In this document: positions 19,031 to 22,409 of the stretch, piece by piece
How positions within the stretch are numbered: the first letter of the stretch is position 1
How the letters are laid out: every line of letters begins with the position of its first letter
DNA from: a virus
Lineage: Duplodnaviria > Caudoviricetes
Length of the DNA stretch: 64,000 nucleotides
Virus record (IMG/VR): IMGVR_UViG_3300028591_000096
Strand: one strand, 5' to 3'
Notes under the pieces: model-generated
The model's database searches: none
What the model saw: only the letters and a program-made list of their open reading frames with translations
Told to the model about the DNA's origin: nothing
Position numbers and translations under genes: made by a program

Positions 19031-19064
19031 AACATGAAAATATTTGTTCCTTCTATTTATTAAC

Positions 19065-19101
19065 AAAAGGATCGATCCTGTTTTATAAGATCGATCCTTT
19101 T
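19065..19101. terminator. Intrinsic terminator
   Basis: aaaaggatcgatc-loop-gatcgatcctttt. Confidence 0.75.
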
Positions 19102-19102
19102 A

Positions 19103-19357
19103 TCATTTTGGAAAATTAAATCCGCTTGTTATAGAACTTGGTGTTAAAGAACCCATCTTTGTTGTAACCTGTGAAATCTGGCTTTGTATGTTTGAATATT
19201 GATCCTGCGGATTTCCATATTGTTCATCGTATTCGGCTTGTTGTTTTTCTTGTGCTTCCCTTTCGTCCTTTACAAATGCTTCATATCTGTTATAAAGCAT
19301 CATTATATCGTAAAAATACATCTTGCCCATTTCCATAGGGTTGATGTGAAGCTTCAT
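19103..19357 (-). CDS. Small baseplate/tail assembly chaperone partner, possibly expressed as a frameshift fusion
   Basis: LHINPMEMGKMYFYDIMMLY resembles the small ORF that follows gp26-type chaperones; the frame is open for 27 codons upstream of its ATG. Confidence 0.6.
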   Translation of the reverse strand: MKLHINPMEMGKMYFYDIMMLYNRYEAFVKDEREAQEKQQAEYDEQYGNPQDQYSNIQSQISQVTTKMGSLTPSSITSGFNFPK

Positions 19358-19376
19358 TGCGAATACTAGTTCCAGT

Positions 19377-20405
19377 TCAACATATTGAGAGTAACGGATT
19401 TGAAAGCACGAAAAGAGAGCGGATACCTCCTCGAAAGGTTAAGGGGATTTCCACTTCCCCACCATCCTCGTTGATATATTTTATTTTTGGTTCGGTTGCG
19501 CCACTAAGTTTTTCTGTAACATATGCGAGTACAGACCATTCTTTAACGTTCCATAGACGTGAAGCTCCTACCATTTCCTCGTATGCTCTCTGACTTAACC
19601 CTCGATAATCCTTGATTAACATAGGGGCATATGTGATGAAATCTTCATCGTAACCCTCCTTTGCATTTATCTTCTGTGCTACATATTTCTTCAACCAATC
19701 GTTTACACCAAGCGAAGGAACATGAATTTTCATAGTATTTCCAGCAACATTGAAAATGAAACATTTATCATCTGGATTATAGAACTTCATGATTTCATCA
19801 GGAATCTTAATGAAATCAATCATTTCCTTAACAACAGGAATCTGCTTATCTTCTGAAATTGGAACCATAAGCTCATTCTCACCATCAATAAATGTAAATT
19901 CCTTGATTGCAAGAAGAATGTAGAATCTGTCGACATTCTTAAGATCCTTCCAACAGTTTCCTGGATAATTAGGATTCTTTACGTTACAACATTTCTCAAT
20001 CATATAGTTAAGAATATCATCAACTCTTGAAAGTTGGTTAATATCCTGATCATTCATTGTTGACCAGTGTTTGATTTCCTCACCTCTTGCAGCACGTATA
20101 CTTATTTCAAATCCATCTGGATAGAATAATCCCTGTGTAGGAAGAGTCTTAACATCAACCTTAAGCCATCCAATGTTATCCTTGTATTTTAATCCAGAAC
20201 CGTTTCCAGTTACAGGAGTACCTTCTCTACCATGTGTTCTGTTTTCTCTTGCTATTTCAGCCATAGATTTATATTCTGGTGCTTGTGGTTCAGCTGGTTG
20301 CTGTATAACCTCTACAGTAGCATCATTAAAAGGACTCTCTGTTATAGGAGTTTCCTCTGATGCAACATATGCACTCATTAAATCCTCTTCAGTTTTCTTC
20401 TTCAT
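19377..20405 (-). CDS. gp26-like baseplate hub assembly chaperone
   Basis: LPTQGLFYP...IRAARGEEIK...DRFYILLAIKEFTF pattern. Confidence 0.65.
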   Translation of the reverse strand: MKKKTEEDLMSAYVASEETPITESPFNDATVEVIQQPAEPQAPEYKSMAEIARENRTHGREGTPVTGNGSGLKYKDNIGWLKVDVKTLPTQGLFYPDGFEISIRAARGEEIKHWSTMNDQDINQLSRVDDILNYMIEKCCNVKNPNYPGNCWKDLKNVDRFYILLAIKEFTFIDGENELMVPISEDKQIPVVKEMIDFIKIPDEIMKFYNPDDKCFIFNVAGNTMKIHVPSLGVNDWLKKYVAQKINAKEGYDEDFITYAPMLIKDYRGLSQRAYEEMVGASRLWNVKEWSVLAYVTEKLSGATEPKIKYINEDGGEVEIPLTFRGGIRSLFVLSNPLLSIC

Positions 20406-20435: not shown

Positions 20436-20466
20436 TATTATACGTTATTTTATCTAAAATGATTAA
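20436..20466 (-). promoter_or_regulatory. Bipartite motif TTAATC-N16-CGTATAATA
   Basis: Exact spacing match; upstream of the gp26-like gene. Confidence 0.75.
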
Positions 20467-22409
20467 ATAGAATAAATAAAATCAAACATTGAACTTACAG
20501 TTCCATCCTCATTATATGCAACAATAGACATCTTTCTTTCTTCTTCTGATACAGCAAGCATCTTGTTAATCATGGATGCGTTGAAATTGAATTCAAGTTC
20601 ACCAACATACAGATTCATATTTGTAGAGAATGTAGGATCAATAAGATTATTATTACCACCTTCATCCCTGAACAATAGTTTATAATACCCGTTAGACATA
20701 TCCATATACGAATATGTACCGTTGTTACCAAGAGTCTTAAATACAAATTTGTAAGACTTTGGAGCCTGGCTTACATTAAGCGTGTAGTTATATTCACCAT
20801 CCACAACATTACCTTGATCATCAAGTACAACCTCTGTCGAATTATAGAAAACTTTTATGTATTTTGTCTTCTGTACACCGTTCTGATTCTGTATATTCTC
20901 GTGTTTATGTTCAATAATTTTATTGTATATCTTATAAGGGGTAAGATCGGCAATCTTCAAACTTGTCCCCTTTACATAGTATCTTGACATGTTTCCATAC
21001 AATGACAAAGTTGAAATTTTAACAAACTGAATCTTATCATGTGCGTTTACAAGTCTCATCGTATATACAATTTGAACGTTATCTATATACATACCTACAG
21101 ACTCATCGAATATAATAGGTCTATAATAGAACTTATTAGGATCAGTATCATTAACAAATATCTGAGTCATTGAGTAAGTTTCTTCCTTGACAACATGATC
21201 TGCCATACAGAATGAACATTTTATCTCATGTATGACAAGCCATTTCTTCATATCATATTCAGGTTCATAATCATCACCAACCTCTTCATCATAATCATCT
21301 CTGATTAATGATCGATCATAAAGTCTTATACCTTTATTGAACGACCATACTGTATTAGCTGTTAATGGTTTATCTCTCCATGTTGCGTAGAATATAAGAT
21401 ACGGCATATCATTACATTCAGAAATATATGCTCCAAGATTATCAGAATTAAGATCAACTCTAGGAATAATTCCGTTAAGAATAGAAGATCTTGTAAAATC
21501 AAGAACAATATTATCCGTATCTATATCTGGAAACTCAGTCTTATCTGCATTAGTATACTCGTTTCTATCAAGAATCCTAGTAGACATGTCATCTTCTGTG
21601 ATATACGCAAAACTTAACTTTATCTGAGTATCATCATTTATGTTCAGTGCATTGAATAGCTCAGTATCATAATGTTTATGATTATATCTGTTCTGTATAA
21701 GATCCCATACACAAGCAACATTCACCTCAATGTATCTGTCATATATGTTATTACCGAACATCGTTGGATTTATTGAGAATTTACAAAGCTTGTAGAATGT
21801 TGACTTGTTGATGAATATGTCACATAAGTCAATAAGTCTGTCAGTCTCTATGACTTTTCCAGTACTGTCCTTTATATCGTTTCCGCTTACAGATATTCTC
21901 ATATATATGCCATAGATATTACTGAAATCATAACCGTTTACAAAATATAATCTAGCAGAATCCCATCTTACATCAGTGATATTTGAATAATAATGCTCAA
22001 GTGGTGCTGAATTATTGTTGAACGGATTAAGCATGTGCTTTTCATACATCCTTGCTTTGATCTGATTGTAGTATATATCGTTCATTATGCTTTCATCTAT
22101 ATACTTATAATCTGGATCAAGGAAATAGAAAAACATTGAATCTTGAGCATCAGACGGTACCACTGTATGGTTAAGTGTATTTATAGATAAAGGATTCTTC
22201 ATGATCTTATACTTGTCATTACTTTCCTCGTCTATAGTCTTAACACACTCATATGAAATAGGTGAAAACAAAAGCGTGTGATTATCCTTCAGCTTTGTAT
22301 ATATAAAAGACGTTGGGTTTGACTCGTCAGCATTGTTTGGACCTTCATGCATGACATATTCAAACATCATAATATCGCTAATCTGTAAAAATCTACTCTT
22401 CAGTGCCAT
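20463..22409 (-). CDS. Hypothetical structural protein (648 aa)
   Basis: Long ORF among tail and baseplate genes. Confidence 0.7.
   Translation of the reverse strand: MALKSRFLQISDIMMFEYVMHEGPNNADESNPTSFIYTKLKDNHTLLFSPISYECVKTIDEESNDKYKIMKNPLSINTLNHTVVPSDAQDSMFFYFLDPDYKYIDESIMNDIYYNQIKARMYEKHMLNPFNNNSAPLEHYYSNITDVRWDSARLYFVNGYDFSNIYGIYMRISVSGNDIKDSTGKVIETDRLIDLCDIFINKSTFYKLCKFSINPTMFGNNIYDRYIEVNVACVWDLIQNRYNHKHYDTELFNALNINDDTQIKLSFAYITEDDMSTRILDRNEYTNADKTEFPDIDTDNIVLDFTRSSILNGIIPRVDLNSDNLGAYISECNDMPYLIFYATWRDKPLTANTVWSFNKGIRLYDRSLIRDDYDEEVGDDYEPEYDMKKWLVIHEIKCSFCMADHVVKEETYSMTQIFVNDTDPNKFYYRPIIFDESVGMYIDNVQIVYTMRLVNAHDKIQFVKISTLSLYGNMSRYYVKGTSLKIADLTPYKIYNKIIEHKHENIQNQNGVQKTKYIKVFYNSTEVVLDDQGNVVDGEYNYTLNVSQAPKSYKFVFKTLGNNGTYSYMDMSNGYYKLLFRDEGGNNNLIDPTFSTNMNLYVGELEFNFNASMINKMLAVSEEERKMSIVAYNEDGTVSSMFDFIYSI

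Follow-up and report, generated by a model that had tools for sequence, protein, structure and literature searches.

The window analysed here is the whole 64,000-nucleotide stretch of IMG/VR virus record IMGVR_UViG_3300028591_000096 (Duplodnaviria; Caudoviricetes), and the locus in question lies on its minus strand. In the list of open reading frames (ORFs), a gene for a gp26-like hub/tail assembly chaperone of 342 residues (19377..20405, stop codon TGA at 19379-19377) is followed by an 84-residue ORF with an ATG at 19357. This small ORF is the 3' part of a longer extension in the +1 frame (19103..19432), which comprises 109 codons (19432-19106) and the TGA at 19105-19103, and which was studied by alignment, profile and entropy. 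The original prediction held that a programmed +1 frameshift at the sequence ACC_TTT_CGA fuses the chaperone to this downstream frame. Judging from the comparison of related loci, the 342-residue gene and the "84-residue ORF" are most likely one recoded gene giving two proteins.

Read in frame 0, the 3' end of the gene is GAA ATC CCC TTA ACC TTT CGA GGA GGT ATC CGC TCT CTT TTC GTG CTT TCA AAT CCG TTA CTC TCA ATA TGT TGA, and the conserved tail of the chaperone consists of GGIRSLF and 10 further residues at the C-terminus. The proposed shift cassette, ACC_TTT_CGA, occupies 19431..19439 of the minus strand, with TTT at 19436-19434, TTC at 19435-19433 and the frame-0 A-site codon CGA at 19433-19431. 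One codon 5' of the shift site a TAA (19439..19441) closes the +1 frame; most relatives have TAA or TGA at the same position, which is what a Leu codon (TTA, CTA or TTG) ahead of an A-initial codon would produce. After this TAA the +1 frame is open for 27 codons (PFEEVSALFSCFQIRYSQYVELELVFA) up to the ATG at 19357-19355, and then on to the TGA at 19105-19103. The overlap between the final 20 codons of the 342-residue gene and the +1 ORF ending at 19103 measures 59 nucleotides; in the region 19380..19430, which was examined by per-position entropy and for invariant synonymous sites, frame 0 encodes GGIRSLFVLSNPLLSIC and the +1 frame EEVSALFSCFQIRYSQYV. A re-reading of the minus-strand sequence agreed with the original prediction in all coordinates and translations, including the 27 open codons 5' of ATG 19357, back to the TAA at 19441-19439, and the start of the overlap at ACC TTT CGA (19439-19431).

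By protein similarity, the window comes from a giant gut phage related to the Prevotella Lak megaphages. In tblastn searches its 342-residue protein displayed 38-44% identity to a protein of all Lak-A/B/C megaphages, and more distant homologues were detected in other phages of more than 400 kb (LR756500, LR756501, LR745206) and in the cultured jumbo phages Flavobacterium MaF61, Chryseobacterium MA9V-1/2, Tenacibaculum PTm1/PTm5 and Sphingomonas PAU (gp93). IMG/VR contains at least 423 related loci. The +1 ORF was surveyed in 78 IMG/VR loci with a readable 3' end (34-77% identity), 68 unique IMG/VR junctions were analysed, and ten further GenBank lineages were compared (Lak-A, Lak-B, Lak-C, LR756500, LR756501, LR745206, MaF61, MA9V-2, PTm1 and PAU); the annotated GenBank records of MaF61, MA9V-2, PTm1 and PAU were also examined. 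When the window's neighbouring proteins were compared to the distant loci by tblastn, matches were confined to a close relative.

In 77 of the 78 readable IMG/VR loci the +1 ORF, taken from stop to stop, runs across the frame-0 stop, and the -1 frame is short. In these 77 loci it is open for at least 16 codons upstream of the frame-0 stop (mostly 19) and for 73-150 codons downstream; the sole exception is an ORF cut by the end of its contig. A +1 ORF spanning the frame-0 stop was also observed in Lak-A1, Lak-B5, Lak-C1, LR756500, LR756501 and LR745206, and in MaF61, MA9V-2, PTm1 and PAU the annotated small downstream ORF lies in the +1 frame in all four cases, and that frame can be followed without a stop for 100-143 nucleotides into the gene upstream. 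The original prediction had named stops in the +1 overlap of relatives as a sign against it; none was encountered in these 77 loci or in the ten GenBank lineages. The arrangement ranges over Lak megaphages, other phages of more than 400 kb and jumbo phages of Bacteroidota and Sphingomonas, and comprises at least 506 sequence clusters. The relatives therefore keep a second ORF, in a different frame and with no conserved start, across the 3' end of the chaperone gene, a pattern far beyond chance.

Ahead of the site, the entropy of the aligned sequences by codon position had the pattern of frame 0; in the overlap it followed both frames at once, and beyond the frame-0 stop the +1 frame. Within the overlap the values at the three codon positions were 0.46, 0.66 and 0.69, so that both frames are constrained, and the dual coding originally suggested for this region was thereby supported. 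After the frame-0 stop the values were 1.45 at position 3, 1.27 at position 1 and 0.79 at position 2, which is the coding pattern of the +1 frame. The first six +1 codons showed the frame-0 pattern only, and codons 7-18 had low entropy at all three positions. Constraint between TTT_C and the peptide LFSLFQ is limited to frame 0 (GGIK), in keeping with a linker when this stretch is read in the +1 frame. In TTC CTT ATT TCA, four consecutive frame-0 synonymous sites are invariant in proteins that are just ~40% identical.

Six very distant lineages share the +1-frame motif [LI]FS[LC][FI]Q[IV]x[LM][TQ]N[FY][FY], followed after exactly 12 residues by (Q/N/P)P(S/M/D)E..(L/M)(P/Y)[FWY]Y. In Lak-C1 the homologous motif LFKIPYDD... 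(LFKIPYDDLMHIVYV..., aligned to LFSCFQIRYSQYVELELVFA... of the window) lies outside any overlap, wholly downstream of the upstream stop, because Lak-type members have 40-60 codons inserted after the overlap and ahead of the conserved helical domain (Lak-C1, L002 3213-3707; Lak-B5, L001 3390-3929; and loci L019, L053, L060, L069 and L086). In hhalign, positions 8-106 of the extension profile are matched to residues 56-164 of Lak-C1 (probability 97.8%, E 1e-12). Taken together, these alignments indicate that the overlap motif is a real peptide. The ~60-codon Lak linker is open in Lak-A1 and Lak-C1; in Lak-B5 it holds a single in-frame TAG (L001 3588-3590) and no other stops, and this TAG aligns with Glu in Lak-C1 and Lak-A1. 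It fits the recoding of TAG to Gln that has been reported for Lak phages. As for the window itself, TAG ends two of its 30 long ORFs, so that TAG recoding may not hold for this phage, and no tRNA genes were found in it.

An in-frame TTT_C was present in the overlap of all 68 unique IMG/VR junctions, exactly once in 67 of them and twice in the remaining one, compared to a background of 0.26% per codon (46/17,770) in the rest of the same genes; it was also seen in PAU, MaF61, PTm1 and loci L091 and L092. The Phe codon at the site is TTT, never TTC, and the next amino acid is Q, R, L, H or P, its codon always beginning with C (CAA, CAG, CGA, CGT, CGG, CGC, CTC, CTT, CAC, CCG or CCC). The alignment of homologous loci proposed as a check has thus returned conservation both of TTT_C and, in 77 of 78 loci, of the +1 ORF. 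As TTT_C is invariant while the following amino acid varies, selection acts here on the nucleotides themselves, UUU and a pyrimidine being kept beyond the need of the protein. In PTm1, CGG TTT CAA is retained in spite of a 5-residue insertion; in MA9V-2 the first site is lost and ATT TTT CTA occurs at the second Phe. In all lineages the region available for the shift is bounded by the +1 stop, which lies one codon ahead of TTT, and by the point where the +1 peptide becomes constrained. Transcriptional slippage was set aside, as the T runs are just 3-5 nucleotides long.

In the 30 long ORFs of the window (16,221 codons), TTT before a pyrimidine is strongly under-represented (86 observed vs 150 expected) and TTC before a pyrimidine over-represented (129 observed vs 96 expected). 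With C as the following base, Phe is preferentially encoded by TTC (odds ratio 0.52, p = 0.006), and the site nonetheless has TTT. The depletion of TTT before pyrimidines may reflect avoidance of shift-prone UUU_Y or a general codon-pair bias. The site is the sole in-frame TTT_CGA in these ORFs, and the codons remarked upon as GC-rich in the overlap are indeed rare, with CCC at 0.4 per thousand, CGC at 0.6, CGA at 1.4, CCG at 1.8 and CTC at 2.7; their presence is, however, largely accounted for by the conserved frame-0 motif PL(T/N)F(R/Q)GGI(R/K)S(L/I)F and the peptide encoded in the +1 frame. The emphasis on a rare CGA in the A site also held in part: the codon is rare in the window, and it is particular to this lineage, most relatives having CAA or CAG. 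In bacteria UUU_Ynn has been described as particularly liable to +1 shifting, and UCC_UUU_CGU is the shift site of influenza PA-X (PMC5009743); the resemblance of the window site to the latter was upheld, with an in-frame UUU followed by a rare CGN. We consider that UUU_C is probably the shift site, on the strength of its conservation.

If the two ORFs were ordinary genes, the 84-residue ORF would be translated only from ATG 19357 and the open +1 frame upstream would be functionless. The ATG is present, the ORF was called as a gene, many relatives have a Met somewhere within the first 40 codons, and the absence of a Shine-Dalgarno sequence is uninformative, as Bacteroidota-type hosts need none. 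However, ATG 19357 is common only to the closest relative, which is 75% identical; at the corresponding position the 57%-identical locus L011 has Leu. Counting +1 codons from the site, an ATG is missing from the first 19 in all 68 unique junctions, from the first 31, which take in the complete conserved start of the domain, in 59, and from the first 60 in 21; independent initiation at 19357, which had been raised as an objection, is therefore not conserved. In addition, the residues encoded 5' of the window's ATG (LFSCFQIRYSQYVELELVFA) are conserved and can be aligned to non-overlapping coding sequence of Lak-C1, and 77 of 78 loci, in genomes that are AT-rich, keep the +1 frame free of stops. 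A profile of the +1 products matched 506 cluster representatives in 1.84 billion proteins, and the ORFs called among them start at scattered profile positions. We regard two independent genes as very unlikely. A different way to dispense with the shift would be a non-canonical start in the overlap, such as the conserved ATC (the Ile of FQI), or termination and reinitiation at the frame-0 stop, either of which would yield a separate protein of ~95-100 residues. Sixteen of the 68 junctions have no ATG, GTG or TTG within 31 +1 codons, and such loci require a non-canonical start, reinitiation or a frameshift. Nevertheless, the conserved +1 peptide LFSLFQ is located 5' of the ATC, the Lak-type phages have ~60 open codons from TTT_C to the conserved domain with no conserved start, the invariance of the TTT_C nucleotides is unexplained by a model with no frameshift, and initiation at ATC, as a non-AUG codon, is rare in bacteria. 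This scenario appears extremely improbable.

A shift could also take place slightly further downstream, at the second T-rich site CTT_TTC (19415-19410), where the P-site tRNA-Leu would move from CUU to UUU, as in RF2, for which CUU_U is the +1 shift site (PMC10885494). The two sites predict different junctions, IPLTFEEVSALF for UUU_C and GGIRSL|SCFQI (GGIRSLSCFQI) for CTT_T. NTT TTC is conserved (CTT, ATT or GTT, then TTC) with an invariant frame-0 third-position T, and constraint on the +1 frame is visible only from about CTT_TTC onward. On the other hand, the Lak phages and loci L019 and L053 have ATA TTC or TTA TTC at this position, at which no re-pairing is possible, and retain TTT_C upstream. 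Nor does the CTT_TTC model explain the invariance of TTT, and of the next C over five amino acids, and it lacks a slow A-site codon, TTC being common. In MA9V-2, which has lost the first site, the CTT_TTC position itself has become an in-frame TTT_C (ATT TTT CTA), pointing to TTT_C as the required element. A shift at CTT_TTC is accordingly unlikely in our view, and UUU_C is preferred.

No in-frame fused form was found: there was none longer than 190 residues in the top 150 of the 506 profile matches, and none in a word-indexed search for longer proteins. This absence is weak negative evidence, and as far as these sequences go the shift has in no lineage been replaced by an in-frame fusion.

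The identity of the 342-residue protein was examined by structure prediction and profile searches. Its AlphaFold 2 (AF2) model (predicted local distance difference test score, pLDDT, 78.5) had 33 Foldseek matches in BFVD at E <= 1e-3, among them proteins of SP-15, phiA8-29, 2050H1, AF3 and ACP17 named baseplate hub subunit or hub assembly protein; Gp26 of Aeromonas phage 25 was matched at E 1e-2. The model therefore shares its fold with proteins annotated as gp26 or baseplate hub assembly. The Pfam family PF12322 (T4 gp26) matched 5 of 43 aligned family members (best E 6.3e-6); for the window's own protein Pfam gave nothing at E <= 1, PF12322 included, and T4 gp26 against the family profile was not significant (hhalign probability 2.5%). 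Pfam and PHROGs searches of the window's own proteins gave a sole match, PHROG 36717, of no known function. The "gp26-like" label thus holds as a remote homology, supported by the BFVD fold matches and by the PF12322 matches in relatives, and "chaperone" was inferred by analogy from descriptions of T4 gp26. A Foldseek search of the PDB gave no match (best E = 1.5). In a structure search of 48,161 PDB chains that is independent of Foldseek (VIA), the HK97 tail assembly chaperone 2ob9_B came top (79 residues aligned, model residues 75-176, root mean square deviation 4.0, Z 5.5, which is below the tool's caution level), and 3klu (YqbN) was matched at Z 4.3, likewise below it; these model-based matches are no more than a hint.

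The window neighbours of the gene are a gp5-like OB-fold hub protein, 4 kb upstream, and proteins with no assigned function. The gp26-like gene of MA9V-2 and PAU comes after the sheath gene and two or three small genes and is followed by the small ORF and a protein of more than 1000 residues, which would correspond to the classical position of a tail assembly chaperone. The protein directly upstream in the window (648 residues, 20463-22409, minus strand) has no family, Atlas or sequence match and is 59% identical in a close relative; on visual inspection its C-terminus is similar to the gene that precedes the Lak homologue, and it may be a tail or hub component on which the chaperone acts.

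Several observations weigh against a recoded gene of this kind, or against parts of the scheme. The evidence for the fusion is comparative only. As the window has ATG 19357, separate initiation alongside the shift is possible, and the Lak phages carry an ATG inside the overlap (MKAARRQ / MKAEPRP) that is a possible independent start of the ORF. Since the majority A-site codon is the common CAA, a "hungry codon" is no general driver of the shift. RNAalifold on 31 loci gave no pairs of a conserved RNA structure 3' of the site, and the window sequence in the same place folds no better than its shuffles (z = +1.5). The second T-rich site, NTT_TTC, is conserved too, and the exact position of the shift is thus not proven. 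With a VIA Z that falls under the caution line, the identity as a tail assembly chaperone is weak, and no tube or tape-measure gene adjoining the 342-residue gene was identified in the window. Lastly, LR756502, a distant homologue (48% coverage), has neither the conserved C-terminus nor the +1 ORF. In this uncultured 642-kb phage (L093 1801-2526) the gp26-like match is limited to residues 82-245, with no GGIK..F tail, and the gene may be a diverged paralogue or represent a lineage that lost the recoded extension.

What the comparison showed to be conserved is the +1 ORF, the want of a usable start in many lineages, the invariance of TTT_C and the switch in the frame of selection at the site, and with these in hand we are fairly confident that the +1 fusion is made. 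In the proposed mechanism most ribosomes would read frame 0 to the TGA at 19379-19377 and produce the 342-residue gp26-like chaperone, and a minority would shift by +1 at UUU_C (19436-19433). There the P-site tRNA-Phe (anticodon GAA), wobble-paired to UUU, would re-pair with UUC in the Watson-Crick manner, in the window phage with the rare CGA as the waiting A-site codon. Decoding would resume at GAG (19432) and run to the TGA at 19105-19103, and the predicted fusion would have 433 residues, the first 324 of the chaperone and 109 from the extension, with the junction ...IPLTF|EEVSALF.... The shift is presumably ribosomal and inefficient; a low efficiency, like that of lambda G/GT and PA-X, is to be expected because no stimulator was found and the rare CGA is confined to this and a few lineages, and the apparent lack of a stimulatory structure would be in line with other UUU_Y sites. 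By analogy, the pair may work like gpG and gpGT of lambda: the shared body would bind a tape-measure or hub complex, and a further tail component would be brought in by the rare extension via its C-terminal motif.

The extension would open with a short linker free of constraint, continue as a small helical domain (LFSxFQI...P.E...FY.I) and finish in a Gln/Glu/Lys-rich tail with the motif F-x-[FIMV]-P-K, which is conserved at the C-terminus and repeated one to three times in relatives. Its AF2 model has helices at 16-29, 34-39 and 42-73 (pLDDT ~90), followed by a low-confidence tail. No significant family or fold match of the extension was obtained by hhalign, fold search or ESM Atlas; in the fold search the best E was 0.13, for a "tail assembly protein", with a few chaperones among the chance-level matches, and in ESM Atlas the nearest named cluster was Phage_tail_T at 0.84, a lead only. 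A "gp51-like" label for the extension was rejected (hhalign against T4 gp51, probability 0.3%). At the stop codons of the extension lies a hairpin identified by RNA folding (19061..19105, minus strand), a perfect stem of 19 bp (-24.3 kcal/mol, z = -7.1), as good as which were 0 of 200 shuffles. It starts at the TGA TAA closing the extension ORF, was missed by a simple terminator scan, and has an A-tract and a U-tract in its arms that suggest a bidirectional terminator; it is likely to be the end of the transcription unit.

In all four annotated GenBank records examined the proposed frameshift is unannotated, and the literature searched contained no report of a frameshift in gp26-like or baseplate-hub genes, or in Lak or related jumbo phages. 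If the proposal is true, hundreds of large-phage genomes, the human-gut Lak megaphages included, carry an unannotated recoded gene, and the small "hypothetical protein" after the gp26-like gene is the C-terminal part of a frameshift fusion. The chaperone frameshift of tailed phages would then include the +1 direction and a chaperone family of different structure, and T4 gp26, whose role in hub assembly has long been puzzling, would be tied to the logic of tape-measure chaperones, with a hint at its mode of action. The loci would also offer many natural UUU_C sites that differ in their A-site codon and have no evident stimulator, and a natural system for +1 frameshifting in Bacteroidota. Cultured phages with this arrangement (PAU, PTm1, MA9V-1/2 and MaF61) make the fusion and its role directly testable.

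At the level of the slip site, the closest likeness is to influenza A PA-X (UCC_UUU_CGU) and Yersinia YopN-TyeA (PMC5009743), in which an in-frame UUU is followed by C and tRNA-Phe can re-pair to UUC. With PA-X the window further shares the rare CGN codon in the A site, the lack of a visible stimulatory structure and an expected low level of shifting. Unlike both, the gene here is that of a bacteriophage with a probable Bacteroidota host; moreover, most family members have CAA and not a rare Arg codon, and the E-site codon is AAC, ACC or ACA as opposed to the UCC of PA-X. Among phage structural and chaperone genes +1 shifts are rare, the cases being PSA and HSTV-2, the latter "very likely +1" (PMC5009743). 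There too, +1 recoding leads to a C-terminally extended structural or assembly protein, whereas in PSA the shift takes place on a Pro codon next to a pseudoknot or stop codon, and gp26-like genes are involved in neither case, nor is a UUU_C site kept in hundreds of lineages. T4 gp26 (PF12322) resembles the present gene in remote sequence and fold relatedness, in its neighbourhood of hub genes and in having two protein forms per gene, here as predicted; its second form, 26', differs in arising by internal in-frame initiation, and gene 25 follows directly in the other frame, so that there is no +1 extension in T4.

The broadest comparison is with the gpG/gpGT pair of lambda and with the frameshift that tailed phages conserve in their tail assembly chaperone genes (Levin 1993; Xu, Hendrix and Duda 2004, cited through PMC5009743). 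Here as there, two products would come from one assembly-chaperone gene, with a shift near its 3' end into a second ORF that has no start of its own; the lack of any in-frame fused form among the matches would fit a need for a fixed product ratio, and the N-domain has weak fold matches to the HK97 and YqbN chaperones. The two systems differ in that the shift here would be +1 at UUU_C and in lambda is -1 at an XXXYYYZ heptamer. No such heptamer is present at this locus and the downstream frame is +1 in every lineage, so that the gene falls outside the -1 pattern; the remark that a +1 direction is unusual for tail chaperones, whose shifts are usually -1, was thus apt, the known +1 cases being rarities. 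The body here has ~300-340 residues and is gp26-like, compared to ~100-150 residues in the lambda type, the extension is short (~75-110 residues) and largely helical with a low-complexity tail, and the window gene lies in a hub/baseplate block and not visibly between tube and tape-measure genes. That the gp26-family hub chaperones are the jumbo- and megaphage counterpart of lambda gpG/gpGT, using a long-kept, stimulator-free UUU_C +1 frameshift, is a view to which we give an even chance. While frameshifting in phage assembly-chaperone genes is already known, the +1 direction, the UUU_C site and the gp26-like body would be new here.

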